From: Acidimicrobiales bacterium
Lineage (GTDB): Bacteria > Actinomycetota > Acidimicrobiia > Acidimicrobiales > AC-9
Length of the DNA: 64,000 bases
Direction of reading: 5' to 3'
Assembly: GCA_036491125.1 (NCBI GenBank)
Contig: DASXCO010000064.1
Location: forward strand, 18,552 to 82,551
The position numbers and the translations under genes were made by a program. Under the pieces are notes generated by a model. That model ran no database searches. It was given only the letters and a program-made list of their open reading frames with translations, and had not been told where the DNA came from. Position 1 is the first letter of the stretch, and every line of letters begins with the position of its first letter. Of the stretch, positions 4,973 through 41,539 are shown piece after piece.

Positions 4973-6205
4973 CTACTCTTCCCGTCCGTCCCGCTCGCGT
5001 CGGACCTGGCGCTCCTCCCGTCGGTCGGTCGCCCGCTCCCGGAGCTCGCTCGCCCGGGCCCGAAGCTCGGCGGGGCCGGGCAGCACGCCAGGCAGGCCGC
5101 GCCGTCGACTCCAGGACCAGCGGCCGTCGGTCCGCGCCTCCGTTCCCGCCCAGTGGAGGGCCCAGAGCTGCACCCGACCCACATCCTTCAAGGTGCGGGG
5201 CCGGAGGGACTTCCAGGCCAGCTCCTCGTCGTCCGCCAGCCCGGCGTGCACCTCGTCGGACACCAGCACCGTCCCCGGGATGGCGATCTTCACGATGCGA
5301 CTGGCCAGGTTGACCACCGGCCCGTAGTAGTCACCCTCCATCGCCAGCACCGATCCGGAGGCCAAGCCGACCCGCACGTCCGACAACAACTCGTCGTCGG
5401 CGTAGGCGTCGGCCAGCTGCAAGGCGATCCGCGCCGCCTCGGCGGTGTCGCGCACCACGAACATGACCTCGTCCCCGATCACCTTGACCACCTGCCCCCC
5501 AAGGGCGCTGACTATGTCGAAGGCGAGGGCCTCGAACCGGCTCACCACCTCGGCCAGGGCCTCGTCGCTCAGCTCCTGGGCGAGCAGCGTGAAACCCACC
5601 AGGTCGGCGAAGCCGATCGTCGCCTCTATCGTCCCCCCGCTGAGCTCGCCCCTGCTGAACGCCAGCATCGCCCGCCGGAACGCGGCGTGGAGGTGCCGGC
5701 GCCAGGCGTACTCGAGCAGCTGCCCGATGCTGGGAAGGATGACATCGAGGCTGCGGAGGAACAGATCCGCCATCTCGTCGGAGTCGAGTTCGCTGCGTGT
5801 AAGCGGCGAGGCTGCGACCTCGGCCTCGGCCACGCGCGCCATCGATAGTCCGATGACCCGCGTCATCTGCAGCGCCACCTCGACGTCGGCCAGCCCCTCC
5901 TGGAGGAAGCGCTCGGCGATGGCGAGGGCCTCGACATCCGCGTCGGTGAAGTGACGCTCGTCGTCGGTCACGTCGGTGAAGCCGAGGGCCCGCCAGAAGC
6001 GCGCCGTCAGCTCCAACGGCATGCCCGAGCGCTCGGCCACCTCGGTCGCGGTGTAGCGCGGCCCCCCGGCAACGAGGAGCCGGTCGACAGTGAGGAGATA
6101 GAGATTGCCCGCGGCCGCGGCCTGGTGGATCTCCTCGGCGCTGACCCCGAGCGACTCGAGGAGCGAGCGCAGGTGGTCCTCCAAGCCCGTCTCCTGGTCG
6201 CTCAC
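4973..6205 (-). CDS. Class III adenylate cyclase with Rv1264/Rv2212-type N-terminal regulatory domain
   Basis: C-terminal CHD: TIGFADLVGFT...VKVIGDEVMFV...VRVGLASGSVLAMEGDYYGPVVNLASRI. The N-terminal part (YTATEVAERSGMPLELTARFWRALGF...) resembles the autoinhibitory domain of M. tuberculosis Rv1264. Start set at GTG 6205, which overlaps the upstream stop (GTGA). The 110-aa extension in the track overlaps the upstream gene and is Arg/Gly junk. Confidence 0.8.
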   Translation of the reverse strand: MSDQETGLEDHLRSLLESLGVSAEEIHQAAAAGNLYLLTVDRLLVAGGPRYTATEVAERSGMPLELTARFWRALGFTDVTDDERHFTDADVEALAIAERFLQEGLADVEVALQMTRVIGLSMARVAEAEVAASPLTRSELDSDEMADLFLRSLDVILPSIGQLLEYAWRRHLHAAFRRAMLAFSRGELSGGTIEATIGFADLVGFTLLAQELSDEALAEVVSRFEALAFDIVSALGGQVVKVIGDEVMFVVRDTAEAARIALQLADAYADDELLSDVRVGLASGSVLAMEGDYYGPVVNLASRIVKIAIPGTVLVSDEVHAGLADDEELAWKSLRPRTLKDVGRVQLWALHWAGTEARTDGRWSWSRRRGLPGVLPGPAELRARASELRERATDRREERQVRRERDGREE

Positions 6206-8556
6206 CGCGGCCCCCCACCCGTGCGCGCCAGCGCGCCTGCCGCGATCTCCGCCTCGCCTCGGAGCTCGCCCGACGACCAGCTGGGATCGAGGCCGGGGGC
6301 GGTGAGGCGAACGGCTCCCGCCCCGGGACGACCCTGGAGCTCCCACCGCAACAGGGCCCGGCCGCCCTCCCACCCCAGCTCGAAGGAGAGCAACCCTCGA
6401 TGCGTGGGCGCCCGGCGCACCGCAAGGGACCGGCCGCTCCATTCCGCTGGCAGCATCGTGCACAACGCCAGGCCGTCGTCGGTCTCTCGCACCAGGAGGC
6501 CGCGCACGAAGGAAAGGAACTCGGCGGTCGCCCACCCGTGGTGGCCGTCACCCATGCACCCGTCGCCGAGGAGCGGGTGAATGGCCTCGGGCCAGGTGAA
6601 CGTTTGACTGGCCGCGCCAACCAGCCATTCCAGGCGGTCGAGGGCCCGCCGGTCACCGGCAGCCAGCTCCACGAACGCCAGCTGGAGCGTCAGGTAGGTG
6701 CCGAGACCGGTGTGGCTGATGCCATGGAAGAAGGCGGAGCCGATCAGGAAACGCTCCCTCACGGCGTCCACCGTCGCGGCCATGGCCGGATCGAGCGGCG
6801 GGATCAGGCCCAGTGGCTGACACGCCACAAGGGATCCGATGATGCCGGGGTCGACCCGTCGGTGCGGCCCTGCCGGTATCACCGACGTGCCCAGGTGGCG
6901 CGAGGTCTGCTCCATCGAGGCCCAGAGTTGAGCACGCATGGAGGCGGCCCACTCGTCGGCGCGGGTCGCGGCCGTCTCGTCGCCTGCGACCCGCAACAAG
7001 GGCGCAGCGTCGAGCAGCCCCCGGAGCGACCAGAAGTCGTCCCAGTAGAAGTAGTCGAACGGTCCGAGGTGCTCGGCGGAGACACCCGCCGGCATCAAGC
7101 CCCGCAGCGCCGGGTCGGAGCGACGTGACCGCGGCTTGGTATGGCGCTTGTGCTCGATCCATGTCGCAGCACGGGCGATCATGGGAGCCAGACGGACGAC
7201 GAGCTCGTCGTCGCCGCTGAGCCGCCAGTGCTCTCCCAGCGTCCACAGCGCCGCGCCGTTGGCGTCCCACTCCTGGCGCTGGCTGAAGAAGAACCCATCG
7301 TGGCCCTGTCGGTCGGGGTACGAGGCCAGCACCTCGGCCGCCTCGGCGTGGAAGCCGTAGCGATTCAGGGCGGCGAGGAGGTAGGCCGCGTCACGGAACC
7401 AGAACCGGTGGTAGGTGAACGGTCCGGGCATCACATCACTGCCTTCGTGCGACAGCAACAGGAAGCGCCGGCAGGCGTCCACGGCGTCGGCCAGCCGCCC
7501 GGGCGGCAGCACGAGATCAGTGCCCCGATCGGTGCGGGCCTGCCACTCCCGTGCTGTAGCCGCGCTCGATGGCACAGCCGGGGGCAGCTGGGGCAGCCGC
7601 TCGGCTCGACGTCGAGCCAAGCGACGCCGGCGGGTGCGTCGCGCCGCCACGAGGGGGAGGGCCACCCGATGCGTGGCCCCCGGCGCCAGCGGCAGCACGA
7701 GGGCGAGCTGCGCCAGACCGACCTCGCAACGAAGCGACATGTCGCGCTGGGCCCCGGCCCCACCGCGCAACACGGTGGTCGCCGAGTCGCCGCCCGCGAA
7801 CGTCGAGCCCGCCACCGCGCTCGGTGCTCGGGGCAGCAGGACGGCGGGTCGGCCGTCCACCATCACCGTACGATCCTCGAGGGCGATCCTCTCCACGACC
7901 GCAAGGCCCTCGGGGTTGTAGGGGCGGACGGCCAGGGCGACGACGAGGTCATCTCGCGTCCGGTTCTCGAGCTCGACGATCAAGAGCTCGGTCCCGCTCC
8001 GGGGGTTCGAGACGCTCGTCGTCACCGCGTAGACCCGGTGCGCCGCGTGACCACCCGGCACCTCGAGCGTCGTCTCCACGACTGGGGTGCCGTCGACCAG
8101 GCGCTGATCGACCCCGCCGTCCCGCGACGGCAGGTGCCACCCGTCCTGCGACTCGACCCACCAGTCCAGCGACCATCCGTCGTACCAAGGCGTCACGAGA
8201 CCGCGAGGATCCACGATGCCCTTGCGCGACGAGCGAGGGTTGCCGACCATCGTCCACGCCCGACCGGTCACGTTGGTCAGCAGGGGAAGGTGCCCGCGGG
8301 GTACGAAGGCCGGTGATCTCGGATCCAGCTGCCGCTCGAGCCACCACGGCCAGACCCAGTCCATGGCCAGCTGGGCGGCGGCACGCGTGCGGACGGCCCG
8401 GAACACGGTCCGGGCGCCCACCGGCAAGAGCTCGCCCGGCACTTCCACCTCGACGGTCTCGCCTAGGCGCTGGAACGTCGACAGGTAGCGGACGATGTCG
8501 TCGGTGATGCGCAATCGGCCCATGGCTCGACGCAACATCCAGGTACGGATCCCCAT
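6202..8556 (-). CDS. (alpha/alpha)6-barrel glycoside-hydrolase-like protein (GH15 / GDE_C-type)
   Basis: 784-aa ORF. PGPFTYHRFWFRDAAYLLAALNRYG...EWDANGAALWTLGEHWRLSGD...YFYWDDFWSLRGL resembles six-hairpin glycosidases. Exact family not resolved by eye. Confidence 0.6.
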   Translation of the reverse strand: MGIRTWMLRRAMGRLRITDDIVRYLSTFQRLGETVEVEVPGELLPVGARTVFRAVRTRAAAQLAMDWVWPWWLERQLDPRSPAFVPRGHLPLLTNVTGRAWTMVGNPRSSRKGIVDPRGLVTPWYDGWSLDWWVESQDGWHLPSRDGGVDQRLVDGTPVVETTLEVPGGHAAHRVYAVTTSVSNPRSGTELLIVELENRTRDDLVVALAVRPYNPEGLAVVERIALEDRTVMVDGRPAVLLPRAPSAVAGSTFAGGDSATTVLRGGAGAQRDMSLRCEVGLAQLALVLPLAPGATHRVALPLVAARRTRRRRLARRRAERLPQLPPAVPSSAATAREWQARTDRGTDLVLPPGRLADAVDACRRFLLLSHEGSDVMPGPFTYHRFWFRDAAYLLAALNRYGFHAEAAEVLASYPDRQGHDGFFFSQRQEWDANGAALWTLGEHWRLSGDDELVVRLAPMIARAATWIEHKRHTKPRSRRSDPALRGLMPAGVSAEHLGPFDYFYWDDFWSLRGLLDAAPLLRVAGDETAATRADEWAASMRAQLWASMEQTSRHLGTSVIPAGPHRRVDPGIIGSLVACQPLGLIPPLDPAMAATVDAVRERFLIGSAFFHGISHTGLGTYLTLQLAFVELAAGDRRALDRLEWLVGAASQTFTWPEAIHPLLGDGCMGDGHHGWATAEFLSFVRGLLVRETDDGLALCTMLPAEWSGRSLAVRRAPTHRGLLSFELGWEGGRALLRWELQGRPGAGAVRLTAPGLDPSWSSGELRGEAEIAAGALARTGGGPR

Positions 8557-8565
8557 GGGTCAACC

Positions 8566-11207: not shown

Positions 11208-11717
11208 CTACCTGGAGGCCCTCTTCGTCGACTTGCGAGCTCGAGACGCGGCGGTCGACTTGGTGCCCTTTCGCGCCGGCGCTCTCGTGGTCTTGCGAGC
11301 CCGGCCCTTCACCGCTTTGCGAGCCGGAGCCTTGGTCGCCTTGCGAGCCGGAGCCCTCGTCGTCTTGCGAGTGGTCTTGCGGGTCGCCTTCCGGGCGGTC
11401 TTGCGGGCCGGAGCCTTCGTCGCCTTACGAGCCGTCTTGCGGGTCTTCGCCGTCTTGCGGGCCGGAGCCTTGGTCGTCTTGCGAGCGGCCTTCGTGGTCT
11501 TCCTGGCCGGGGTACGGCCCGCCGTCCGCGACTTCTTGGCCAGTGACTTCGACGTCTTCGACGCCGACTTGCTGGCCTTCTTGGCCAGGCTGCTGCCCTT
11601 GCGCGCCGCGGATGCCCGTGTGCTGCTCACCCGGCGCTTGGCTGACTTTTTGGCCCTGCCCGTCGAACCTGCGACGCGCTTCTCCGCTGCCGAAGCCGCT
11701 TTCCTGATCGCTGCCAT
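11208..11717 (-). CDS. Histone H1-like Lys/Arg/Ala/Thr-rich repeat protein (169 aa)
   Basis: MAAIRKAASAAEKR... followed by many ARKTTKAPARK-type repeats. ATG has SD AGGTGA. Starts 8 nt after the HU stop, so probably co-transcribed. Confidence 0.7.
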   Translation of the reverse strand: MAAIRKAASAAEKRVAGSTGRAKKSAKRRVSSTRASAARKGSSLAKKASKSASKTSKSLAKKSRTAGRTPARKTTKAARKTTKAPARKTAKTRKTARKATKAPARKTARKATRKTTRKTTRAPARKATKAPARKAVKGRARKTTRAPARKGTKSTAASRARKSTKRASR

Positions 11718-11725
11718 GGAATCAC

Positions 11726-12148
11726 CTACCGCTTCCTAACGGCTTTCGCCGTCTTGTTGGTCGTCTTCTTCTTCGCCGGAGCCTTCTTGGCCACCGGCCC
11801 CTTGTTGGCGGGAGCCCTCTTCGAGGTGGCCTTCCTGCCCGGCGCTGTCTTCTTGGCCTTCTTTATCGGTCGGTTCGTGTTGAGGGCTTCCTTGAACGCC
11901 GATCCAGCTGCGAACCGCACACCCTTCGATGCGTTGATTCGTACTGGCGCCCCAGTCTGCGGGTTGCGGCCCATACGGGCGTTGCGCCTCGTCGGGTTGA
12001 ACGTGCCGAAGCCGATCAGCGCAACCCTGTTACCCGTTCGCACCGCCTCCATAACCGTCGACATCACCGCGTCAACGGCGCGCTCGGCTTGACGCTTCTC
12101 GAGAGCAGTAGCTGCGCCGACCGCCTCGATCAGCTGGGACTTGTTCAC
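11726..12148 (-). CDS. hup: HU family nucleoid protein with basic C-terminal tail (HupB-like)
   Basis: (M)NKSQLIEAVG...ALIGFGTFNPTRRNARMGRNPQTGAPVRINASKGVRFAAGSAFK, then a PAKK-type tail. Start moved to the second GTG (12148) because GAGGAG lies 5 nt upstream and HU proteins begin MNK. Confidence 0.9.
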   Translation of the reverse strand: MNKSQLIEAVGAATALEKRQAERAVDAVMSTVMEAVRTGNRVALIGFGTFNPTRRNARMGRNPQTGAPVRINASKGVRFAAGSAFKEALNTNRPIKKAKKTAPGRKATSKRAPANKGPVAKKAPAKKKTTNKTAKAVRKR

Positions 12149-12209
12149 CGCCACCTCCTCATCCCTTGCTCGTTGTAGTGACGCAGTTTCCCTGTAATGA
12201 AAAAGGTTA

Positions 12210-19937: not shown

Positions 19938-22900
19938 TCAGCTGGCGCGGCTGAGCTCGGGTGACTGCTCGGCCGACCGTTCGATCGCCAACTCCGGGCG
20001 CAGCTGACGCTGAGCTTCCTCGAGCTGGTGTACCGCCGAGGCCCGCTGGAGACGCTGCGTCGGCGACTCCGGGCGTTCGCCCTGGCCACCCAGGGCGAGG
20101 TGCCGGTCCTCCACACCCCACCGCTCCCGATAGCTCTCCACCGCCAGCACCGCCTGGCGCCAGGCGGCCCGCTCGACAGGCGCGGACGGACGCGGACCGA
20201 GCTCGGCCACCAGATAGCCGGGGGGAGAGACCTCCGCCGCTCGGGCCAGGGCCCGCTGCCTGCGGCTCGTCGCCTCGACGAGGATCTCGCGGCTCGCCAG
20301 GTCGGCCCGCCGCGACGTCAACCCCGCCGACCGGCTCCCGGCGTCGGTCTCCAGCTCGCGGCGGCGGTCGCCCAACAAGGCGTCCCGGTCCTCCCATCGC
20401 CGGACCTCCGCCTGGCGAAAGGAGACCTCGATGCGGACATCCTGGGTCTCCTCCATCGCTGCCCGACGACCGATCCAAGGTCTCCTGGCCTCGAGGCGCT
20501 CGAGTCGCGCCGCCGCGTCCGATCGGGCCGACCTGGCGGCGATCAGCCGATCGGTGGTCCGTGCCTGCTCCTGGTCGAGCCGGGACAAGCGGGCGGTGGG
20601 GTCGGGAGCCGGGGCGCGGGCCAGGCGACGCTCGACATCGTCGAGACGACGACCCAGCTGGCCGAGCGAGCCAGCCAACTCGTGCGGGGAGAGCAGTTCG
20701 GGGGGCAGCAGCTCGGGTCCGGTGCGGCGACCGCTCCGACCGACAGTGTCGACGACGTAGCGGTGGTCGTCGCCGGCCGCCGCGCTCACCGCGCGGCCCT
20801 CGCCGAGGACCAGGGCCCGATCCGGCCTCACCCTGCGGGCCTCACGGACCGTGGTGGCGTAGGCGTGCCGCAGCTCGACCTTCGTCGCCGCGGCCTCGCT
20901 CATCGACAACGTCGGTCCCTTGTCGGTGCGGAGCTCGAGCACCTGGCGCTCGACATCGACGCCGGTCACCGTCGCCCGGTCGCCAGTCACCACGCCTGCC
21001 TCTCGGCCCCCGCGACCGATCAGGACACGGTCGCCTACCGCCATCTCGCGGCGGCCGACGTGGATCGACTCGCCCAGCTCGCCGGCGGCGATCAGCTCCG
21101 CACGCGCAGCAGCATTGAGCGCATCGATCTCCCACCGGCTGGAGGCGACCATGACGGGCTCGCTTCCTGCTTGCCGGTCGGCCCACCAGTCGTCAACCAC
21201 CCGTTGGCGAACGGCCGGGGCCGACGAGCCCACGACAACCGGGGCGACGTCGTCGCGATCGACGACCTGAACCCAGCCACTCCCGACGATCCGTTCCGCG
21301 GTCGTCGTCGTTCGGGGCGGGTCGAGGGCGATCGACCCGAGGCTGTCACCCAGCCGACGAAAGGCTCCCGCGTCCACGCTTCGCAGCTGGCGGAGCTCGC
21401 CGAGCACGATCACCTTCGTGCCGGCTCGGTCGGCGCCGTCCAGCAGCTTCCCGAGGCTGGCCGCGCCCAGTCGGCCTGCGTCGTGGACGACGAGGACGTC
21501 AGCGGGTAACGCAGGCCCCGACCGCCCATCCAGCTCGGCCAGCACCTCCTGCTGCGGCGTGGTCTCGATGCCGGTGACCGCCTCGAGGTCTGCCGCCTGC
21601 TCAGCGGTCGGCGCGCTGGCTGCGACGCGCAGACCGGAGGACTGCCATCCATCGCGTGCAGCATCGAGGGCGTCGCTGGAGCCGGCCCACCTGGCACCCG
21701 TGGCGACGACCACGCCCGCTCCCGAGCACAGCAGCTCTCGCACCGCGGCCGACTGCGTCGACGGCAGCTGCGGCCGCAGCGCCAGGGCCGATTCGAGCGC
21801 CGCCGGCTCCACCACACCCACGCCGTCTCGAGTCCGCCGCTGCGCCGAGTCGACGAGCGCGCGCTCGGCAGCCAGCACCTCCGGAGTTGTCCAGCGCGCT
21901 TCCTGGACGTGTCGCGATGCCTCGGCCAGCGAGACCGGCCGGACCAGGTCCGACCTCAACACGGCATTGGTGAGTGCTTCGATCCTCGCCACCTCGGCGC
22001 CATCCGGAAGCGCCGAGCAGCAGGCCCGCACCACGTCCCGACGGGCGAAGGTCGACGCCGACGCTGTCAGGCCTTCGGGGCCGACGATGCTCCTGATCCA
22101 ATCCTCGGTCGGGAGGCCGCCATCCGTCGGCTCCGACCGTCGCGTACCTGTCATGGCCGCGGCCAGCTCGCGTCGACCGAGTCCGGACGATTCGGCGCGC
22201 GCCCGCCACTCACCGACCAGCGTCTCGAAGCTGATCTCCAGGTCCTTGCCGCTCCGCGTGGCGAGTTGGGCGACCCGGGCCGCTCTCGGCCCCGACAGAC
22301 CCTCGTCCGCGAGCCGCGCCTGGATCTCCTGGCGTCGCCTCGAGAACGCCAGCACCACCGGGCGCTCGATCCCCTTGATGTCGGCCATGCCAGCGCGCAG
22401 CTCGCCCCACTCCAGACCAAGACGCCGGCGCAGCTCGTGGCGAAGGTGGGCCTGGTACAGGAGACCTGCGGTGCGGGCGTGCGCATACAGCCCCCGGGCG
22501 TCGAAGGCCGACCACCGACCGTCGCGACCAGCGACCAGGTTCGCCAGCACCACGTGGGTGTGGAGATGGGGATCAGGGGCCCGGCTGGTGCGGTGGAGGA
22601 AGGCCGCCCCCACCACGCCGTCGACGGTGACGCTGTGGCGGCCGTCGCCGCTGCCGCGGCGAGCGGTGATCGCCTCCCGTTCGAGGTAGCCGACGGCGGC
22701 GGCGACGGCGGACTCGTGGGCGACCCGCACCTGATCGGCGGCCGCGGGGTCCCCGAGGGCGAAGCACAGCGACACCGACTTCGGAGCTGCGAAGGTCAGG
22801 TCGAAGCCGGCAACCCGCACCCGGTCCTGGGCCGGGTTGAGCAGCTCGCCTGAAGCGGGGTCGGCGCCGGCCAGCACCGCTTCGAGCTCGGAGGCGGCGA

Positions 22901-23051
22901 CGGATCCCCGCAGGCCGAGGGCCTCGGCGCCCCCGCCCAGCCAGACCCCGTCAGGCTCCTGGCCGGGACGGCGATGGTCCTCCCTGCCGGCGGCGACGCC
23001 TTCGAGGTAGTAGCGGGCACCGCCCCGTCTCACCTTGGCGATGCTGAGCAT
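19938..23051 (-). CDS. MobF-family (TrwC/TraA-type) relaxase with degenerate helicase module
   Basis: MLSIAKV...GARYYLEG...GFDLTFAAPKSVS...FLHRTSRAPDPHLHTHVVLAN (HUH His-triad). The AAA_30/RecD-like region is present but the P-loop reads GARWAGSS and Walker B reads VVHDAG. The C-terminal coiled-coil plus YRERWGV motif is typical of actinobacterial TraA. Start could also be 23063 or 23066. Confidence 0.85.
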   Translation of the reverse strand: MLSIAKVRRGGARYYLEGVAAGREDHRRPGQEPDGVWLGGGAEALGLRGSVAASELEAVLAGADPASGELLNPAQDRVRVAGFDLTFAAPKSVSLCFALGDPAAADQVRVAHESAVAAAVGYLEREAITARRGSGDGRHSVTVDGVVGAAFLHRTSRAPDPHLHTHVVLANLVAGRDGRWSAFDARGLYAHARTAGLLYQAHLRHELRRRLGLEWGELRAGMADIKGIERPVVLAFSRRRQEIQARLADEGLSGPRAARVAQLATRSGKDLEISFETLVGEWRARAESSGLGRRELAAAMTGTRRSEPTDGGLPTEDWIRSIVGPEGLTASASTFARRDVVRACCSALPDGAEVARIEALTNAVLRSDLVRPVSLAEASRHVQEARWTTPEVLAAERALVDSAQRRTRDGVGVVEPAALESALALRPQLPSTQSAAVRELLCSGAGVVVATGARWAGSSDALDAARDGWQSSGLRVAASAPTAEQAADLEAVTGIETTPQQEVLAELDGRSGPALPADVLVVHDAGRLGAASLGKLLDGADRAGTKVIVLGELRQLRSVDAGAFRRLGDSLGSIALDPPRTTTTAERIVGSGWVQVVDRDDVAPVVVGSSAPAVRQRVVDDWWADRQAGSEPVMVASSRWEIDALNAAARAELIAAGELGESIHVGRREMAVGDRVLIGRGGREAGVVTGDRATVTGVDVERQVLELRTDKGPTLSMSEAAATKVELRHAYATTVREARRVRPDRALVLGEGRAVSAAAGDDHRYVVDTVGRSGRRTGPELLPPELLSPHELAGSLGQLGRRLDDVERRLARAPAPDPTARLSRLDQEQARTTDRLIAARSARSDAAARLERLEARRPWIGRRAAMEETQDVRIEVSFRQAEVRRWEDRDALLGDRRRELETDAGSRSAGLTSRRADLASREILVEATSRRQRALARAAEVSPPGYLVAELGPRPSAPVERAAWRQAVLAVESYRERWGVEDRHLALGGQGERPESPTQRLQRASAVHQLEEAQRQLRPELAIERSAEQSPELSRAS

Positions 23052-23191
23052 GACAGCCAGCATCATAGCTTTTCACTGCTTTTCATACACTCTCGTGGAG
23101 GTGGGCGACGAGAGGGAGGGCCGCGGAGCCAATTTCGAGCAGAACCGGGGTCTCGCCGGGCTGGCCGGGGCCGCCGCCCCCGACCCGCGCC

Positions 23192-24121
23192 TCAGCGGTA
23201 GGTGACGAGGATGCGCTCGGCCGCCCGGCGCCCGGCGCCGACGAGGTCGGGAGGATCGATCACCTCGGCCTCGGGGCCGAGGCGCAGGAGCAGCCGCTCC
23301 AGCCACGCCGTGCCGGAGACGGCCAGGGTCACGACCAGGCCGCCATCGGCCCGCTCCTCGACGTCGAGGGTGGGGTACGCCTCGACCACCCAGCGGGCCG
23401 ACCGGTGGATCGACAGGCGCACGAGCCTGGCCTCGGGGCCGGGAGCGAAGACTCCCTCCGGTACCGTCCCCGGCGCGGCGTCGAATCCCTCGTCGGTCAG
23501 GCGGGCGGCCTGCATCCGGTCGATCCGGAAGAGCCGGACGTCGCCTGCCAGGTGGCAGAACCCGTCCAGGTACCAGTGGCCTTCGCTGGAGAACGCCGAG
23601 TAGGGATCGACCCGGCGTGTCGTGCGCTCGTCCCGGGAGGCGGCGTAGTAGTCGATCTCGAGCTGTCGACGGTCGGCGATGGCCCGCTGCACGACCTCGA
23701 GGTTGGCGGGCTCGTCGAGGTCGATGGCGATTCGGCGCCGATCACCGAGCACCGTCTCGAGCTTGGCCAGGGCGCGAGCGAGGGCGCCGTTGGGATCAGC
23801 GCCCGGCACGGCGAGGATGGCACGGGCCGAGGCGGCCACGGTGAAGCCTTCCGCCGCGCTCAGCCGGCGCGGGCGGGCGAGGTGGTCGCCCAGATTGGCC
23901 GACACCCACTCGTCGGACACGATGAGCTCGATGAGCTGATCCGGCGTGTAGGGAGGTAGGCCGCAGCAGGCGGCGAGCTCCAGTAGCGCCACCACCTCGC
24001 GCTCGGGCATCTCGAAGTGGGCAGCCACCTCGGAGATCGGCGCCCCGCCCCGGTCGGCCAACCAGGGCAGGATGGCGAGCAGCCGCCTGAGCCGGTCGCC
24101 GGCGTCGGCCTTCGAGGTCAA
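23192..24121 (-). CDS. pafC: PafC-like HTH-WYL transcriptional regulator
   Basis: DRLRRLLAILPWL...ISEVAAHFEMPEREVVALLELAACCGLPPYTPDQLIEL...LEIDYYAASRDERTTRRVDP...HWYLDGFCHLAGDVRLFRIDRM. Start is TTG 24121, overlapping the pafB stop (TTGA). The track ORF over-extends by 245 aa. Confidence 0.75.
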   Translation of the reverse strand: MTSKADAGDRLRRLLAILPWLADRGGAPISEVAAHFEMPEREVVALLELAACCGLPPYTPDQLIELIVSDEWVSANLGDHLARPRRLSAAEGFTVAASARAILAVPGADPNGALARALAKLETVLGDRRRIAIDLDEPANLEVVQRAIADRRQLEIDYYAASRDERTTRRVDPYSAFSSEGHWYLDGFCHLAGDVRLFRIDRMQAARLTDEGFDAAPGTVPEGVFAPGPEARLVRLSIHRSARWVVEAYPTLDVEERADGGLVVTLAVSGTAWLERLLLRLGPEAEVIDPPDLVGAGRRAAERILVTYR

Positions 24122-25068
24122 CGGCCGAGCTCCCCGACGGGCGGGGCGGATGCGGCCGCCGCCTCCAACCACGCCCGCATGCGCTGGCGAAGGGACGCTG
24201 GCCCCAGCACGACCGCGTGATCGAGGAGGCCGAGGACCCACGATCTGAAGGCGTCCTCGTTCGCCACATCCAGACGGACGAGGATCGAGCCGTCGCGTCG
24301 GCGCTCGAGCACGGCTCCCTCGCCCAGCTCGGCCTCGACCAGCGGGGCCTGCCACTGGTCGATCAGCACCTGGGCCGGTGTGACCTCGCCCTCCCCGAGT
24401 CGCCAGGGCTCCTCGGGAAATGCCGTGGCGGCATCGAAATCGGCCGGCGGCTCGAACGCGCCGCCTTCGCCGACCATCAGCCGGCCGTCCATGCGGTCGA
24501 CACGGAATGTGCGCGAGGCCTGCCGAGCCTGGTCTCTCCCCACCAGGTACCAGAAGCCGGACCGGAACAAGAGTCCGTAGGGCTCGACCCGTCGCTCCTC
24601 GCCCCGGTAGCCGAATCGCACCGCGGCGCGGGCCCGCAGGGCTTCGTGCAGCCGCGGCAGCTGTGGCAGCGACGGCAGCGACGCCACCGGGCTGGGGCTG
24701 TCGGCGTCGGCGACGCCGAGCTTGACGAGCGCCCCGCGCCCGCTGCCCTCGTCGAGGTGGACGCCGGCCACGGCCAGGTTGAGGGCCACCTGCTCGTCGT
24801 GGTCGAGTCCCAGAGGCGGTAGGTAGTAATCCTCGGGCCGGATGCGATAGCCCCACTGCTCCTCGGACTCCACCGGCTCCACGGCGATGGGGATCCCCTC
24901 CTCCCGGAGGGTGCGCTTGTCGCGCTCGAACGCCTGGCGGCGGGCCTCGGCGCCATCCGGGTAGCCCGTCACGGCATCCGCGATCTGGTGAATGGTGAGG
25001 GGCCGCTCGGTGTCGAGGAGCACCAACACCAGGTTGGTGAGCCGCTCCAGCCGGTCCCGCCTCTCCAC
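24118..25068 (-). CDS. pafB: PafB-like HTH-WYL transcriptional regulator
   Basis: RLERLTNLVLVLLDTERPLTIHQIADAV...FERDKRTLREEGIPI...WGYRI...VRFGYRGEERRVEPYGLLFRSGFWYLVGRD...RTFRVDRM. Confidence 0.75.
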   Translation of the reverse strand: MERRDRLERLTNLVLVLLDTERPLTIHQIADAVTGYPDGAEARRQAFERDKRTLREEGIPIAVEPVESEEQWGYRIRPEDYYLPPLGLDHDEQVALNLAVAGVHLDEGSGRGALVKLGVADADSPSPVASLPSLPQLPRLHEALRARAAVRFGYRGEERRVEPYGLLFRSGFWYLVGRDQARQASRTFRVDRMDGRLMVGEGGAFEPPADFDAATAFPEEPWRLGEGEVTPAQVLIDQWQAPLVEAELGEGAVLERRRDGSILVRLDVANEDAFRSWVLGLLDHAVVLGPASLRQRMRAWLEAAAASAPPVGELGR

Positions 25069-25088: not shown

Positions 25089-25523
25089 TCAGCTCAGGTG
25101 GCGGAAGCGCAGCGGCAACGTGTCGGTGACGAACGCCCGCAGCGGCTGGCCACCGTGCTCGCCGACGACCACGATGGCGAAGTTGCCGCTGCGGGGCATG
25201 GTCTCGTTGGCGACGTCGCCGGGGGCGTACTTCCCTTGGAAGGCGACTACGCAGACCGAGCGGTTCGACTGGTTCGGTTGATTCGGTTGGTTCGCCTGGG
25301 TGGGAGGCGTCGGGGGCCGACGCAGCTGCGACAGCGCCACCCGGCGCACACCGAGCAGGCGGCCCTTGCTGTGGACGGCGTCCGTCGCCGATGGGAGGGC
25401 CTGGAAGCAGGTGCTGGAACCCGTGCCGAGGCTGTTGTGGGCCGAGGCGCAGCCACCGAGGGCGACGACACCGAGGGCCAGCCCGACACCGGCCGCGGCG
25501 GCCCTCCGGAAGGGGATCCTCAC
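25089..25523 (-). CDS. Lipoprotein, function unknown
   Basis: Signal peptide with lipobox: MRIPFRRAAAAGVGLALGVVALGGC. Has an internal QANQPNQPNQSN repeat. GTG start overlaps the upstream stop (GTGA). Confidence 0.7.
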   Translation of the reverse strand: MRIPFRRAAAAGVGLALGVVALGGCASAHNSLGTGSSTCFQALPSATDAVHSKGRLLGVRRVALSQLRRPPTPPTQANQPNQPNQSNRSVCVVAFQGKYAPGDVANETMPRSGNFAIVVVGEHGGQPLRAFVTDTLPLRFRHLS

Positions 25524-37102: not shown

Positions 37103-37108
37103 CGTTTC

Positions 37109-38359
37109 GTGCCGACGCCCACACGGCACCTCGACCTCGATCGCGTGCAGGTCCTGGTGCGCGAGCGGTGCTTCCCCGCCTCGACCGCCGCCCTCGTGGG
37201 CGCCGAGATCGAGTGGCTGAGCCATTCCCTCCAATCCGACCATGATCTCGGCTGCGGCGAGGTCGAGGCGGCGCTCGACGGCGCGACGGCGTTGCCCGGG
37301 GGCAGCTCCCTGACCTTCGAGCCGGGCGGTCAGGTCGAGCTCAGCTCGGCTGCCTTCACTGGCGTGACCGACGCCTGCCGGGCCCTGGGGCGCGACGCCA
37401 GTGCGGTGCGCGCCGCCCTGGCCGAGCACGACATCGAGCTGGTCGGCATGGGGCTCGATCCCCTACGACCCCCCCGGCGCGTCGTCGACGGCCCTCGGTA
37501 CCAGGCCATGGAGGCCTTCTTCGACGCCGACAGCTCGGGCGGGCACGCGGGCCCGACCATGATGTGCAACACGGCGGCGGTCCAGGTGAACCTCGACATC
37601 GGCGCCCCCGACGCCATCGGCCGGCGGTGGCGGCTGGCCCACGCGCTGGGGCCGGTGCTGGTTTCCTCCTTCGCCAACTCTCCGCTCGCCGCCGGCCGAC
37701 CGACGGGGTGGTGCTCGACCCGGATGGCCACGTGGTTGGGCATCGATCCCTCCCGAACCTCCCCGGTGAGCCAGGACGAAGGATGGGCGGACGCTTGGGT
37801 CGACTACGCCATGGCCGCCAAGGTGATGCTGATCCGGCGCAGCCCCGACGACTTCGTGCCGGTTCGCAGCGGGCTGTCGTTCGGCGAGTGGATGGCGACC
37901 GGACACGAGCTCGGTTACCCCACCATGTCCGATTTCGAGTACCACCTGACCACGCTGTTCCCGCCCGTGCGGCCCAGGGGCTGGCTCGAGCTCCGCTACA
38001 TCGACGCCCTGCCCGATCCCTGGTGGCAGGTTCCCGTGGTCGTGGCCACGTGCCTGTTGGACGACGACGAGGCCTCGGCGGCGGCCGCCGAGGCGGTCGC
38101 CCGATGTGGGGCGTCGTGGCTGGACGCGGCGCGGTGCGGGCCGAGCCACCCCGAGCTGGCCCGGGCGGCCGAGACGTGCTTCGATGCCGCCCTGGGCGCC
38201 TGCAGCCGCCTCGGGGTCGACGAGCTCACGGTCGAGGTGGTCGCCCGCTACCGGGACCTCTATGTGGCGAGACACCGATGTCCCGCCGACGACCGTCTCG
38301 ATGAGTGGGCCGCCAGCGACGGACCGGTCGAACCCCCCTTGGCGGCGTCGTGGACCTGA
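37109..38359 (+). CDS. egtA: Glutamate-cysteine ligase EgtA (ergothioneine pathway)
   Basis: GCS2-type ligase pattern (GAEIEW...TFEPGGQVELSS...MMCNTAAVQVNLD...LFPPVRPRGWLELRYID), located first in an egtA-B-C-D gene order. Confidence 0.85.
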   Translation: MPTPTRHLDLDRVQVLVRERCFPASTAALVGAEIEWLSHSLQSDHDLGCGEVEAALDGATALPGGSSLTFEPGGQVELSSAAFTGVTDACRALGRDASAVRAALAEHDIELVGMGLDPLRPPRRVVDGPRYQAMEAFFDADSSGGHAGPTMMCNTAAVQVNLDIGAPDAIGRRWRLAHALGPVLVSSFANSPLAAGRPTGWCSTRMATWLGIDPSRTSPVSQDEGWADAWVDYAMAAKVMLIRRSPDDFVPVRSGLSFGEWMATGHELGYPTMSDFEYHLTTLFPPVRPRGWLELRYIDALPDPWWQVPVVVATCLLDDDEASAAAAEAVARCGASWLDAARCGPSHPELARAAETCFDAALGACSRLGVDELTVEVVARYRDLYVARHRCPADDRLDEWAASDGPVEPPLAASWT

Positions 38360-39699
38360 ACGCCATGATGGCCGGGCGCCTCGAGGCGGCGCGGCGTCGC
38401 ACCCTCGACCTCCTGGCTCCGGTTCCCGACGACGGCCTGATGCGCCAGCATTCGCCGCTCATGTCCCCGCTCGTCTGGGACCTGGCCCACGTCGGCAACT
38501 ACGAGGAGCAGTGGCTCCTACGGGCCTTGGGCGGGCCCGCCGTCGGCCCGCAGTGGGACTCGGTGTACGACGCCTTCCGCCACCCGCGGCGGGACCGCCC
38601 GTCGCTGCCGATGATGGGGCCCGCCGAGGCCCGCGAGTACGCGGCCGTGGTGCGGGGCCGGGTGCTCGACCTGCTGGAGCGTCTCCCGCTCGACGACGGC
38701 CCGACGAGGACGCTTCGCCGGCCTGCTCCGGGCCCATCACCGAGCCAGAGCGCGCCGCCTCCCGCCGGCGAGCTCACGCCGGGCGCCTTCGTGCACGGGA
38801 TGGTCGTCCAGCACGAGCACCAGCACATCGAGACCATGCTGGCCACGCTCGAGCTGGCCGAGGAGTCCGACTGGCTCCCCACGGCAGAGGAGCCCCCGGC
38901 GGGCGGCATCGTCTCCGGAGAGGTCCTGGTCGACGGCGGACCCTTCGTCATGGGAACCGACACCGAGCCGTGGGCCTACGACAACGAACGCCCCGCCCAC
39001 GTGGTCGACCTGGCGCCTTTCTGGATCGACGCGGCGCCGGTGACCAACGCCCAGTACCTGGCCTTCGTGGAATCAGGGGCCTATCAGGAGCCCCGCTGGT
39101 GGTCGCCGGCGGGGTGGGCCTGGCGCGAGGAGTCGGGGCTCGCCCACCCGGGCGGATGGTGCGCCGAGGGCGCGGCTTCCAGGTCCGAGATCCGCTTCGG
39201 CCGCCGTCACGACCTGGCCCTCGATCAGCCGGTCGAGCACGTGTGCTGGCACGAGGCCGACGCCTTCGCCCGGTGGGCGGGCAAGCGCCTGCCCACCGAG
39301 CCCGAGTGGGAAAAGGCCGCCTCATGGGGCCGCGACGGGCACAAGCGCGCCTACCCGTGGGGTGACGACGATCCCACGCCCGCCCTCGCCAACCTGGGGC
39401 AGGCCCATCTCGGTCCGGCTCCGGTCGGCGCCTACCCGGCCGGCGTGAGCCCGTGGGGCTGTCACCAGATGATCGGTGACGTGTGGGAGTGGACGGCGTC
39501 CGATTTCCTGGCGTACCCCGGGTTCGCCTCGTTCCCGTACCGGGAGTACTCGGAGGTCTTCTACGGGAGTGAGTACAAGGTGCTGCGGGGCGGCTCGTGG
39601 GCGACAGACCCCACCGCCATCCGGACCACGTTCCGCAATTGGGACTACCCGATCCGACGCCAGATCTTCGCCGGCTTTCGCTGCGCAAGGGATGCGTGA
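38350..39699 (+). CDS. egtB: Hercynine oxygenase / sulfoxide synthase EgtB (DinB-like plus FGE-sulfatase domains)
   Basis: SPLVWDLAHVGNYEEQW...HEHQHIETM...FVMGTD...YDNERPAH.V.L.PFWID..PVTN..Y..F...GGSWAT...FRNWDYPIRRQIFAGFRCA. Start is GTG 38350 (10-nt overlap with egtA) or ATG 38365. Confidence 0.85.
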   Translation: MDLNAMMAGRLEAARRRTLDLLAPVPDDGLMRQHSPLMSPLVWDLAHVGNYEEQWLLRALGGPAVGPQWDSVYDAFRHPRRDRPSLPMMGPAEAREYAAVVRGRVLDLLERLPLDDGPTRTLRRPAPGPSPSQSAPPPAGELTPGAFVHGMVVQHEHQHIETMLATLELAEESDWLPTAEEPPAGGIVSGEVLVDGGPFVMGTDTEPWAYDNERPAHVVDLAPFWIDAAPVTNAQYLAFVESGAYQEPRWWSPAGWAWREESGLAHPGGWCAEGAASRSEIRFGRRHDLALDQPVEHVCWHEADAFARWAGKRLPTEPEWEKAASWGRDGHKRAYPWGDDDPTPALANLGQAHLGPAPVGAYPAGVSPWGCHQMIGDVWEWTASDFLAYPGFASFPYREYSEVFYGSEYKVLRGGSWATDPTAIRTTFRNWDYPIRRQIFAGFRCARDA

Positions 39700-39708
39700 G
39701 AAGGGCCC

Positions 39709-40482
39709 GTGTGCCGACTGGTCGGCTATCTCGGCCCACCCGTGACGCTCGAAGAGCTCTTGCTGGAACCGGAGAACTCGCTGCTCCACCAGTCCTGGGC
39801 CCCGGAACGACAGACGCACGGCACGGTCAACGCCGACGGGTTCGGGGCCGGCTGGTACGACCTGTCGAGCAGGCCAGAGCCGGCGCGGTACCGGCGGGCG
39901 GGACCGATGTGGGCCGACCGCTCCTTCGCCAGCCTGGCCGGACTGGTTCGCAGCGGCACTGTCCTGGCCGCGGTGCGCAGCGCCACCCCGCCAGCGCCGG
40001 CCGAGGAGAGCGGTACGCCGCCGTTCACCTCGGGAGGGTGGCTGTTCGCCCACAACGGCGCCGTGGACGGCTTTCGCGACAGCCCGGGCGCCACCCTTCG
40101 CCGGGCGCTGTCGGACAACCGGCTGGCAGGTATCGAGGGGGCCGCCGACTCCGAGGTGCTCTTCGCCCTCACCCTCGAACGACTCGACGCCGGCGCCGCC
40201 CCCGAGGAAGCGCTCGCGTCGGTCGTGGTGCAGGTCACCTCCGTCACCACCGGCCGGCTGACGATGCTGCTCACCGACGGGCGACGGTTGGCCGCCGTGG
40301 TGTGCGGCGAGGCGCTGTACCGAATCGGGCGCGACGACGATGGGACCGACGACGACGGGACCGACGGGCTCGTCGTGGCGTCCGAGCCCTCCGACGCCCG
40401 GTCCGGTTGGCGACACCTCCCCGAGGGCACGCTGCTGTCGGCCTGGGACGGAGGTGCACGAGTCCGTGAATCGACCTTCTGA
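39709..40482 (+). CDS. egtC: Class II glutamine amidotransferase EgtC
   Basis: MCRLVGYLG (N-terminal nucleophile Cys2)...NADGFGAGWY...FAHNGAVDGF. Confidence 0.85.
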   Translation: MCRLVGYLGPPVTLEELLLEPENSLLHQSWAPERQTHGTVNADGFGAGWYDLSSRPEPARYRRAGPMWADRSFASLAGLVRSGTVLAAVRSATPPAPAEESGTPPFTSGGWLFAHNGAVDGFRDSPGATLRRALSDNRLAGIEGAADSEVLFALTLERLDAGAAPEEALASVVVQVTSVTTGRLTMLLTDGRRLAAVVCGEALYRIGRDDDGTDDDGTDGLVVASEPSDARSGWRHLPEGTLLSAWDGGARVRESTF

Positions 40483-40528
40483 GCCGCGCACCGGTGACCA
40501 CCGAGCCACGCACGAGGAGCCGTATCCC

Positions 40529-41539
40529 GTGACCAGTCCCCCGAGCATCCGCATCGACGTCCACCTCGACGCCGCGCAGCTCCGGGCCGCGCTGCGGACC
40601 GAGGCCCGGGCGGGGCTGACGGCGAGCCCCAAGGAGCTGTCACCCAAATGGTTCTACGACGAGCGGGGCTCGGAGCTGTTCGAGGCGATCACCCGGCTCC
40701 CGGAGTACTACCCGACTCGCAGGGAGCAGGAGATCCTCGACACGAACGCCGGGACCATCGCCGATCTGGCGGGCGCCGACACGGTCGTCGAGCTGGGCTC
40801 CGGCACCTCGGCGAAGACGAGGACTCTGCTGGACGCCTTCGCCGCCCGTGGCCGACTGGACCGCTTCGTGGCCTTCGACGTGAGTGAGCCGACCCTGCGT
40901 GCGGCGGCGGCTTCGATCGCCGGCGAGTACCCCGGCGTCGCCGTCCACGCCGTGGTTGGCGACTTCGACCACCATCTCGGCGACCTGCCCAGAGAAGGTC
41001 GACGCCTCGTCGCCTTCCTGGGGGGAACCATCGGCAACCTGGGGCCCGACCGACGGGCGTCGTTCCTGAAGGAGCTCTCGGCGTCGCTGGGCCCGGGGGA
41101 TACCTTCCTGCTGGGCACCGACCTGGTGAAGGACGTCGCCCGGCTCGAGGCCGCGTACAACGACAGCGCCGGGGTAACGGCCACCTTCAACCGCAACGTC
41201 CTGGCCGTGCTCAACCGGGACTTGGGAGCGGACTTCCACCTCGAGCGGTTCGAGCACGTCGCACGGTTCGACCGCGCCCGGGAGTGGATCGAGATGGCGC
41301 TGCGCTCCACGTCCGATCAGGTCGTCACTCTGGCCGACCTCGATCTCCAGGTCTCGTTCTTCACCGGCGAGGAGATGCGCACCGAGATCAGCGCCAAGTT
41401 CCATCGCTCGGCGCTGGAAACTCAGATGGACGACGCTGGGCTGGAGCTTGTGCACTGGTGGACCGACGCCGCCGGCGACTTCGCCCTGTCGCTCTGGGCT
41501 CCGGCAGGAACCGGCCTCGGCGAGGCGGCTTCGTCCTAG
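40529..41539 (+). CDS. egtD: L-histidine N-alpha-methyltransferase EgtD
   Basis: GTG 40529 (GAGGAG upstream): SPKWFYDERGSELFEAITRLPEYYPTRREQEIL...VELGSGTSAKTR.LL...FLGGTIGN...ND..GVTA.FN.N.L. The track ORF is over-extended into egtC. Confidence 0.85.
   Translation: MTSPPSIRIDVHLDAAQLRAALRTEARAGLTASPKELSPKWFYDERGSELFEAITRLPEYYPTRREQEILDTNAGTIADLAGADTVVELGSGTSAKTRTLLDAFAARGRLDRFVAFDVSEPTLRAAAASIAGEYPGVAVHAVVGDFDHHLGDLPREGRRLVAFLGGTIGNLGPDRRASFLKELSASLGPGDTFLLGTDLVKDVARLEAAYNDSAGVTATFNRNVLAVLNRDLGADFHLERFEHVARFDRAREWIEMALRSTSDQVVTLADLDLQVSFFTGEEMRTEISAKFHRSALETQMDDAGLELVHWWTDAAGDFALSLWAPAGTGLGEAASS

Follow-up and report, generated by a model that had tools for sequence, protein, structure and literature searches.

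Sequence evidence for a helicase-dead MOBF relaxase gene inherited vertically beside pafBC in Acidimicrobiales

Introduction

MOBF relaxases such as TrwC (R388) and actinobacterial TraA join an N-terminal HUH transesterase to a helicase, and of the two catalytic Tyr pairs in their motif I (YY-x5-6-YY) the second serves the terminating strand transfer. Here, we analyze a relaxase-derived gene that follows a pafB-pafC pair in an Acidimicrobiales bacterium, within a 64,000-nucleotide (64-kb) stretch of contig DASXCO010000064.1 (assembly GCA_036491125.1). This stretch is hereafter called the window, all positions are those of the window, and the 1037-aa product of the gene is called the window relaxase. 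The window relaxase resembles TrwC and TraA in its N-terminal HUH transesterase, His triad, Asp, first Tyr pair and domain order, and both profiles and a predicted fold group it with the MOBF relaxases. Unlike TrwC and TraA, it has no second Tyr pair, no helicase motifs, no surrounding mobile element, no block resembling an origin of transfer (oriT), and no nearby gene for a type IV coupling protein (T4CP) or type IV secretion system (T4SS). It is also vertically inherited beside pafBC. Because it has one Tyr pair instead of two, no working helicase and no mobile-element surroundings, we do not class it among the conjugative relaxases.

The vestigial helicase domain of F/R1 TraI (5N8O), which Ilangovan and colleagues reportedly described in 2017 as a module binding single-stranded DNA (ssDNA), offers a closer parallel for the middle part of the protein, as both have a RecD2-like fold without ATPase motifs. 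However, the vestigial domain of TraI sits beside a second, active helicase, whereas the only helicase domain of the window relaxase is dead. For a domesticated HUH enzyme, the nearest conceptual precedent is found in RAYT/TnpA-REP, HUH (Y1) transposases that have become single-copy, vertically inherited host genes acting on chromosomal ssDNA sites. RAYTs are unrelated to the window relaxase in sequence, belong to the IS200/IS605-type HUH family, and have neither a helicase relic nor a link to a damage regulator.

In mycobacteria, PafBC is an ssDNA-activated activator that works by sigma adaptation and is encoded in a pafA-pafB-pafC operon. In M. tuberculosis, the slot that the relaxase gene holds in the window is occupied by tatA-tatC-helY, downstream of pafC. 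Activation of PafBC by ssDNA has been reported (PMC11804915, PMC8635444), and in its published motif, tGTCgg-N10-tA-N3-T, the GTC is read by PafB R46 and R50 in M. smegmatis numbering (PMC8635444). Like the mycobacterial pair, the genes in the window are two adjacent, overlapping and paralogous HTH-WYL-WCX (helix-turn-helix, WYL, WCX) genes forming a B/C pair, but they have no pafA or proteasome neighbor in 64 kb and PafB R46 is replaced by Gln.

An earlier first-pass annotation of the window, made by reading the sequence, had drawn attention to the pairing of pafBC with a relaxase gene and supposed that it was undescribed. Full-text literature searches bore this out: no publication came up that connects a relaxase of Actinobacteria to PafBC or to WYL regulators, or that treats PafBC in acidimicrobial bacteria, and there was nothing relevant on domesticated chromosomal MobF relaxases. 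To our knowledge, a relaxase with a host-cell function other than transfer would be the first of its kind.

Results

Linkage of the relaxase gene to pafBC

The proteins closest to the window relaxase come from metagenome-assembled genomes (MAGs) of Acidimicrobiales. A profile search returned 1381 proteins at E <= 1e-20, and those carrying a name all belong to Acidimicrobiales MAGs except one labelled Dormibacteraeota. Public databases annotate the family as "MobF family relaxase" or "conjugative relaxase". To count adjacency, we scanned one genome per species, which gave 80 relaxase loci from which duplicates were then removed, and restricted the count to 42 loci encoding relaxases without a P-loop and having at least 1.5 kb of upstream sequence. 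pafC lies at most 700 bp upstream on the same strand in 32 of them, and pafBC is found 0.7-6 kb upstream in six others, for a total of 38/42. Seventeen relatives retain the second Tyr pair; pafC was near none of them, and those that are full-length all keep a P-loop too (GxxGxGKT or APAGxGKT). Sampling was also done in reverse by scanning metagenomes with a PafC alignment, which provided 54 loci where the sequence extends 1 kb or more past pafC. A relaxase N-terminus is encoded downstream on the same strand at 51 of the 54, and no P-loop or second Tyr pair was found in the relaxases at these 51 loci. The pafC-relaxase adjacency that the first-pass annotation had singled out is thus kept among relatives.

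Conservation of gene order extends beyond these three genes. Contigs bearing relatives at 65-80% identity, one of them 519 kb long, have the same gene order on both sides, and the order LPG-synthase, small open reading frame (ORF), pafB, pafC, relaxase, (AMP-binding), 2-Hacid_dh, CofC, gpsA is conserved at identities of 35-90%, with some of the syntenic loci on contigs of 0.5-4.7 Mb. Relatives without a P-loop at 35-50% identity still adjoin the block of 2-hydroxyacid dehydrogenase, CofC and gpsA genes, and for this reason we regard these distant loci as orthologous. Upstream of pafBC, synteny (LPG synthase, small ORF) is kept whatever form the relaxase takes.

In a neighbor-joining tree of relaxase domains, the pafBC-linked sequences without a P-loop form one clade, hereafter the dead clade, beside the motif-intact ones. 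Furthermore, PafC and relaxase-domain distances are correlated (Mantel r 0.815, a value reached by 0/999 permutations), with mean pairwise identities of 0.54 for PafB, 0.52 for PafC and 0.48 for the relaxase domain. One MAG, TC-S_metabat2.bin.60, carries both a motif-intact relaxase with a P-loop and a DE box (L019) and a pafBC-linked dead one (L052). These two are paralogues that have met different fates.

We then compared the window gene with four relatives for the ratio of nonsynonymous to synonymous substitution rates (dN/dS), which was 0.18-0.22 in the relaxase domain, 0.26-0.39 in the dead helicase and 0.20-0.45 in the C-terminal region. Among the neighbors, the corresponding values were 0.10-0.13 for pafB, 0.16-0.22 for pafC and 0.15, from a single comparison, for the AMP-binding gene. 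Taken together, these comparisons show at the level of sequence that the relaxase-derived gene is vertically inherited, monophyletic, selectively kept and fixed beside pafBC in Acidimicrobiales.

Relaxase domain and its catalytic residues

The window relaxase matches Pfam TrwC (PF08751) over aa 10-287 (E 3.4e-78), and its N-terminus matches the MobF relaxase model NF041492 of NCBIfam at 233 bits against a cut-off of 100. An AlphaFold2 model of the protein (mean predicted local confidence, pLDDT, 88; predicted template modelling score, pTM, 0.80) was matched by Foldseek to TrwC with a TM score of 0.88 and a root-mean-square deviation of 2.5-2.9 A. These results agree with the first-pass description of a TrwC/TraA-type relaxase of 1037 aa.

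That annotation had also taken the relaxase domain to be intact, which holds for one part of the active site and not for another. Alignment to TrwC (1omh) revealed that the first Tyr pair is retained as Y14/Y15 (nt 23007-23012; Y18/Y19 in TrwC), the activating Asp as D84 (nt 22800-22802; D85 in TrwC) and the His triad of the HUH-type metal site as H153/H164/H166 (within nt 22554-22595; H150/H161/H163 in TrwC), the stretch HRTSRAPDPHLHTH containing the triad starting at nt 22595. All these residues are kept in 47/48 members of the clade. The first-pass annotation had missed the change of the second Tyr pair (Y26/Y27 in TrwC) from EDYY to EDHR. All motif-intact relatives read E[DE]YY at this position, and the group without a P-loop reads EDHR or another sequence devoid of Tyr. 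The residues retained suggest that the protein could still carry out HUH-type cleavage of ssDNA, site-specific and limited to a single turnover, and remain attached to its product.

A helicase fold without helicase motifs

Helicase motifs were compared in an alignment of 121 sequences, the window protein and 120 database relatives. All seven motifs of superfamily 1B (SF1B) helicases are lost in the window relaxase. Walker A has become GARWAGSS (aa 452-459, nt 21675-21698), where motif-intact relatives read GxAGxGKT, and Walker B has become DVLVVHDAG (aa 518-526, nt 21474-21500), where the majority of relatives read hhVVDEAGM. Motifs III-VI are gone as well, with the GDxxQLPEIxAGG, NRRQxxWER, TxHKAQGxT and YVAxSRGR of relatives replaced by unrelated residues. 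The first-pass reading of a dead helicase, lacking the Lys of Walker A and the Asp-Glu of Walker B, therefore stands, and alignment with TrwC/TraA relatives revealed no canonical P-loop or DExx box in the window protein. Furthermore, no P-loop of the form [AG]x4GK[ST] occurs anywhere in the protein in the 47 clade members checked.

Helicase-type Pfam matches are to AAA_30, confined to aa 429-564 (2e-21) and to positions 2-136 of the 191 in the profile, and a weak one to TraI_hel_assoc_N. The model contains a single SF1B fold, and Foldseek matched the middle part of the model to F TraI 5n8o (the top match), RecD2, RecD and Pif1. The model thus suggests that the fold of the helicase is retained while its chemistry is gone. 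Long helices follow at aa 796-1029, and the C-terminal motif PPxYLxxxLGxxPxxPxxRxxWRxAxxxxExYRxxWG is common to full-length, motif-intact actinobacterial relatives. Full-length relatives, at 35-45% identity, have the same order of relaxase, SF1B fold and helical C-terminus.

Three architectures occur in the clade, of ~1030-1130 aa, ~790 aa and ~435-490 aa, and all keep the relaxase domain. The longest, found in the window and its sisters, has the dead helicase and the C-terminal helices; in the shortest, which is the commonest, the TrwC domain alone is detectable. This series suggests that the nicking domain is what selection retains. Downstream of the short-form genes, we found no further conserved partner; the genes there are housekeeping ones (bioB-like radical SAM, lumazine synthase, acyl-CoA dehydrogenase, P450).

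A T4CP-like ATPase in sister clades

A gene of ~475 aa encoding a T4CP-like ATPase is convergent on the relaxase gene in 23/44 loci with enough downstream sequence, and is absent from the clade of the window. The nearest sister clade, in which the relaxase gene lies beside qcrB, has it. Such genes were found at L004:14166-15593 (-) and, as equivalents, in L031, L033, L035-L037, L040-L043, L045, L046, L049, L051, L054, L061, L068, L069, L075, L078, L083 and L088-L090. Their products resemble VirD4/TrwB in their Pfam domains (T4SS-DNA_transf, TrwB_AAD_bind and TraG-D_C) and in their Walker A (GPPR[SA]GKT) and Walker B (hhhhDE) motifs, present in 25/25 copies, and they match TrwB in the PDB weakly (1e-3). 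Unlike VirD4/TrwB, they have no N-terminal transmembrane segment, no hydrophobic or membrane segment having been found before the P-loop, and they are chromosomal and convergent on a dead relaxase gene. Sequence features thus point to a soluble relative of the coupling proteins. Since many sister clades keep this ATPase with intact Walker A and B motifs, the ancestral unit probably consisted of pafBC, the relaxase and the T4CP-like ATPase.

PafB and PafC

The orthology of the two regulators was assessed against PDB sequences. PafC is closest to M. smegmatis PafC (7p5x_AX, 2.5e-39), with the PafC half of 6SJ9 next; for PafB, the highest-ranking matches are M. smegmatis PafB (9fnd_X/7p5x_AY, 3e-25) and the corresponding half of 6SJ9. 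The two halves of 6SJ9 match the window proteins in the right order. Pfam recognizes HTH_PafC, WYL and WCX in pafC, and WYL and WCX in pafB. As the first-pass annotation had stated for pafA, a Pfam scan of the ~55 ORFs of the window found no pafA, dop, pup or prcAB.

The recognition helix of the window PafB reads RQAFERDKR (region of aa ~40-55), and RQAFERDK is invariant in ~100 PafB sequences from Acidimicrobiia (copies in L001-L170). R50, K52, R56, E42 and A43 are kept in these proteins, and R46 aligns with Gln, an Arg standing one residue earlier. Judging from these residues, the target motif of PafBC may differ in Acidimicrobiia. A natural PafB-PafC fusion of 723 aa was observed at L008:5252-7423, ~2.6 kb upstream of a dead relaxase of 906 aa, from which it is separated by a 218-aa ORF and a gene with a Rieske domain.

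Elements upstream of the relaxase gene

The tandem element upstream of the window relaxase gene (Table 1) has the general form (A/C)ATGA(A/G)A-N4-nTGA(A/G)A, with a TAnnnT hexamer 3-5 nt on and the start codon ~10 nt further. The pattern nTGA[AG]A-N4-6-nTGA[AG][AG] occurs at 33 sites in 1.54 Mb, both strands included, ~26 of them immediately upstream of relaxase genes in several subclades, and has a single match in the whole window. The element was also seen upstream of relaxase genes in L001, L007, L010, L015, L017, L030, L039, L044, L052, L062, L068, L079, L083, L090 and others. From its position, the -10-like hexamer would give a leaderless or nearly leaderless relaxase mRNA.

In one subclade with the neighboring ATPase gene, GGTAGGT-N4-GGTCGG-N9-TA(A/G)CCAGGG replaces the ATGAAA tandem. 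This second element has 13 sites in 2.1 Mb, always at -39 to -22 of a relaxase start (L031, L033, L036, L037, L040-L043, L045, L046, L049, L054 and L088). Its GGTCGG-N9-TA(A/G)CCA part loosely resembles a PafBC box and contains the GTC, with the spacing one base short and the final T missing. Most short-form genes begin shortly after the end of pafC and have a GGAGG ribosome site, an arrangement that fits co-transcription with pafBC.

Covariation of the PafB helix with these elements was looked for and not found, the helix being invariant while the element differs among clades. Binding by PafB thus gains no support, and the elements cannot be assigned to it. They might be bound by the relaxase, as happens at plasmid oriT-promoters, by a PafBC whose specificity has changed or by some other factor. 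A search of the window for the RecA-NDp/PafBC box TGTCRGTG-N8-TANNNT gave no match with up to one mismatch, and the looser GTC[GA]G-N9-11-TANNN[TA] gave four, none of them near the relaxase gene, pafB or egtA. No match to the sigma-70 consensus and no intrinsic terminator were found between 19.7 and 25.4 kb, and the spacer contains no notable inverted repeat.

Six motif-intact relatives (L018, L020, L029, L032, L053 and L082) have a block of the form ACGCACTTGCACCTG-N2-4-GTGCG 40-60 nt upstream of the gene. This ACGCACTTGCACCTG block may be their oriT, and no upstream block of this type is present in the dead clade. An obvious oriT hairpin was sought in the motif-intact relatives and discarded as a distinguishing feature, since mean perfect-stem lengths do not discriminate (5.4 upstream of dead vs 5.2 upstream of motif-intact ones).

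Features of the locus and of the window

The features of the locus are listed in Table 1. On the minus strand, the order is pafB, pafC, a 140-bp spacer and the relaxase gene, and pafB and pafC meet at ggccgTTGAcctcg, a 4-nt TTGA overlap in which TTG is the start of pafC and TGA the stop of pafB. The ORF list and the junction sequence agree with the first-pass annotation on gene order, coordinates, overlap and spacer length. Its AT-richer spacer was confirmed too, the GC content being 0.68 in the spacer and 0.52 in the 60 nt nearest the relaxase gene, vs 0.72-0.73 in the three genes, as was the host-like composition of the relaxase gene, with a GC content at third codon positions (GC3) of 0.85 vs 0.89-0.92 in its neighbors. 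The relaxase start codon is the ATG at 23049-23051; it is likelier than the upstream ATG at 23066 because homologues begin at the same V/MLSIAKV, the family-typical start that the first-pass annotation had recognized.

Table 1. Positions of the features of the pafB-pafC-relaxase locus in the window.
Feature	Position	Strand	Basis
pafB orthologue (HTH, WYL, WCX)	24118..25068	(-)	Pfam; best PDB matches M. smegmatis PafB and PafB half of 6SJ9
pafC orthologue (HTH_PafC, WYL, WCX)	23192..24121	(-)	Pfam; best PDB match M. smegmatis PafC, then PafC half of 6SJ9
pafC-relaxase spacer with the relaxase gene's own promoter-like region	23052..23191	(-)	
Tandem element ATGAAAAGCAGTGAAA, two TGAAA half-sites spaced by one helical turn, immediately 5' of the -10-like hexamer	23071..23086	(-)	
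-10-like hexamer TATGAT, 10 nt before the start codon	23062..23067	(-)	Read from sequence; CTATGAT conserved in the clade of the window
Relaxase-derived gene, 1037 aa: TrwC-type HUH transesterase, vestigial SF1B helicase, helical C-terminal region	19938..23051	(-)	
Relaxase (TrwC) domain, aa 1-295	22167..23051	(-)	Alignment to TrwC 1omh
E24-D25-H26-R27 in place of the second Tyr pair (TrwC Y26/Y27)	22971..22982	(-)	Alignments
Vestigial SF1B (RecD2/TraI-like) helicase fold, aa ~426-760	20772..21776	(-)	Alignment, AlphaFold2, Foldseek
C-terminal long-helix region, aa 796-1029	19965..20666	(-)	Alignment, AlphaFold2 model

Around the locus, the minus strand encodes, in order, a CMAS methyltransferase, Band-7, Tim44-like and PNPOx proteins, an LPG-synthase transmembrane protein, a 144-aa ORF, PafB, PafC, the relaxase and an AMP-binding enzyme. 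Next, on the opposite strand, come genes for a 2-hydroxyacid dehydrogenase, an adenylate-cyclase/AAA16/TPR protein, PIG-L and CofC, and gpsA. ORFs of the window with Pfam matches are housekeeping and metabolic genes only. In line with the first-pass annotation, which had seen no coupling protein, T4SS, FtsK/TraB-like translocase or integrase, Pfam detected none of these in the ~55 ORFs. The window contains no tRNA gene, and no Rfam family was found at the gathering threshold. PADLOC assigned no defense system to the relaxase, the small ORF, the T4CP-like neighbor or a 182-aa neighbor; its WYL models match PafB and PafC.

Three ORFs have no Pfam match and a coding-like GC3: 6202-8559 (-), of 785 aa, 57678-58997 (-), of 439 aa, and 25089-25523 (-), of 144 aa, the last of which most relatives also have between the LPG-synthase gene and pafB. 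Two adjacent genes at 11208-11717 (-) and 11726-12154 (-) encode basic, chromatin-type proteins, one HU-like with a Lys/Ala-rich tail (142 aa) and the other consisting of 169 aa with ARKTTK/APARK-like repeats; these genes explain why, at 11-12 kb, the AT skew is strongly negative and the GC content lower. GC drops to 0.64-0.66, vs ~0.71, between 42000 and 47000, where GH10 xylanase, GH5 cellulase, response regulator and limonene-epoxide-hydrolase-like genes are located, and this stretch may be horizontally acquired. An ergothioneine-type cluster occupies 37103-41539 (+), with GCS2/egtA-like, FGE-sulfatase plus DinB_2/egtB-like, class-II amidotransferase/egtC-like and Methyltransf_33/egtD-like genes. 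The mycobacterial ergothioneine cluster is part of the PafBC regulon (PMC8223512). In L010, egtB and egtD homologues directly adjoin the dead relaxase gene.

Discussion

Purifying selection, monophyly and co-divergence with PafC lead us to conclude that the window relaxase is very probably domesticated, a chromosomally fixed descendant of a MOBF conjugative relaxase co-opted by Acidimicrobiales. The first-pass annotation had proposed domestication; besides selection and co-divergence, the dead helicase, the host-like chromosomal gene and the conserved adjacency speak for it. The locus is not a remnant of an integrative and conjugative element (ICE), as the 64-kb window holds housekeeping genes only and its synteny is conserved in Acidimicrobiales. 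A functionless, decaying remnant of an ancient mobilizable element that integrated beside pafBC would account for a stepwise loss that began with the helicase motifs, went on to the helicase itself and in many cases took the T4CP-like gene too, as well as for the somewhat relaxed dN/dS. We consider it highly improbable, since the ORFs remain intact at 35-50% identity, catalytic residues are kept in 47/48 members, every region has a dN/dS far under 1, divergence of the relaxase domain is about as slow as that of PafB and PafC (mean identity 0.48 vs 0.54 and 0.52), and the family has more than 1000 members.

For the domesticated relaxase, a role in the ssDNA damage response appears the most likely, because ssDNA is what activates PafBC and because the gene order hardly varies; this role remains a tentative proposal. 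The combined statement, that this is a domesticated relaxase working in the ssDNA damage response, seems to us evenly balanced between right and wrong. In its most specific form, which we advance with still more reserve than the role itself, pafB-pafC-relaxase would be an order-wide, vertically inherited functional unit, and the relaxase would have been exapted into a LexA-independent, ssDNA-triggered response as a single-turnover nicking or capping enzyme. Under the combined statement, the relaxase would bind specific ssDNA and cut it once, leaving a covalent 5'-phosphotyrosyl link, and would be unable to unwind, pump or by itself export DNA. All that its helicase fold would still provide is a scaffold or a surface for binding ssDNA, like the vestigial domain of F TraI; in other clades the fold is gone altogether. 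Alongside the damage response, the enzyme would process ssDNA ends or sites, whether in an effector role or by modulating the ssDNA signal. In the clade of the window, it would be expressed from its own leaderless promoter, guarded by the tandem ATGAAA operator, and in short-form clades it would probably be co-transcribed with pafBC.

Several observations weigh against the proposal as a whole. pafBC was not found nearby in 4/42 dead-clade loci, among them the nearest sister clade, whose relaxase gene lies beside qcrB, and the relaxase-domain tree is a neighbor-joining tree without bootstrap. The overall dN/dS of the relaxase gene, 0.25-0.31, exceeds that of its neighbors. No tGTCgg-N10-tAN3T box precedes the window relaxase gene, and the upstream elements differ by clade (ATGAAA tandem, GGTAGGT-N4-GGTCGG, none) while the PafB helix is invariant. 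About half of the loci also encode a T4CP-like ATPase with intact Walker motifs, which would fit translocation of DNA better than its repair. The putative functional tie to the PafBC response is drawn from synteny. The tie to a PafBC-type response suggested by the first-pass annotation thus gains from the strongly conserved adjacency and loses from the promoter-like element of the relaxase gene's own and from the missing PafBC box.

The window relaxase could still be a transfer relaxase that nicks a chromosomal oriT, possibly the conserved upstream element, and pilots chromosomal DNA through a T4SS supplied in trans, the module being the relaxase alone in the window and the relaxase with the T4CP-like ATPase in relatives. 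Many functional relaxase families, in MOBQ, MOBP and MOBV, use one Tyr and have no helicase, and the catalytic core is intact in 47/48 members. The position-fixed element stands immediately before the gene, as the oriT does in small plasmids, the C-terminal region is common to motif-intact relaxases, and the T4CP-like neighbor combines invariant Walker motifs (25/25) with all three coupling-protein domains. However, neither the 64-kb window nor the syntenic flanks in its clade contain a T4CP or T4SS gene, the T4CP-like protein has no counterpart of the membrane anchor at the N-terminus of VirD4 and TrwB, and the upstream block of motif-intact relatives is absent from the dead clade. Furthermore, the helicase and second Tyr pair were lost though mobile relatives all keep both, which argues for a changed job, and an order-wide fixed position is unlike that of mobile modules. 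We therefore think continued transfer unlikely. The plain non-conjugation reading of the first-pass annotation fits the lack of transfer genes in the window, but has to be tempered by the sister clades, which keep the ATPase with intact Walker A and B motifs.

Two further explanations involve the regulators. The pafBC-like pair might be a private WYL regulator of an old relaxase/T4CP element, the whole cluster then being one domesticated element, an idea orthogonal to the other alternatives. The absence of pafA and Pup-proteasome genes from the window, the Gln in place of mycobacterial PafB R46 in all Acidimicrobiia PafB examined, and cis elements dedicated to the relaxase gene would fit, but the full-length reciprocal best matches, correctly ordered, to the two mycobacterial proteins, the HTH_PafC domain, an upstream synteny of pafBC independent of the relaxase form, and the stronger conservation of PafB and PafC than of the relaxase make this quite unlikely. 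Alternatively, the helicase-dead relaxase might act in exclusion or defense as a decoy that binds or cuts the oriT/nic ssDNA of related MOBF elements as they enter and so keeps them from becoming established, with the neighboring WYL proteins sensing ssDNA entry. Motif-intact MOBF relaxases do circulate in the same lineages, even in the same MAG, WYL regulators often adjoin defense genes and PADLOC WYL models match PafB and PafC, and the relaxase evolves faster than its neighbors. A decoy is nevertheless rather improbable given that PADLOC matched neither the relaxase nor its neighbors, that a fixed chromosomal position and near-universal presence are unlike defense islands, and that PafB and PafC look like orthologues of a global regulator.

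Relaxases are taken as markers of mobile DNA, and surveys count a lone chromosomal relaxase as a mobilizable element. The domesticated relaxases described here, a family of more than 1000 proteins, break this rule, as they appear to be encoded by a core, positionally fixed host gene that has shed the parts needed for processive transfer and kept the nicking site. Even without a functional link to PafBC, the family should be masked in mobilome predictions and in predictions of ICEs and integrative and mobilizable elements (IMEs) for Acidimicrobiia. Gene order ties this relaxase family to PafBC, the master regulator by which Actinobacteria respond to DNA damage. Should this link prove functional, an unexpected enzyme would join the PafBC damage-response pathway, and the full-length forms with a dead helicase, the truncated forms and the relaxase-only forms, with or without a soluble T4CP-like ATPase, would provide a natural series for the study of domestication.

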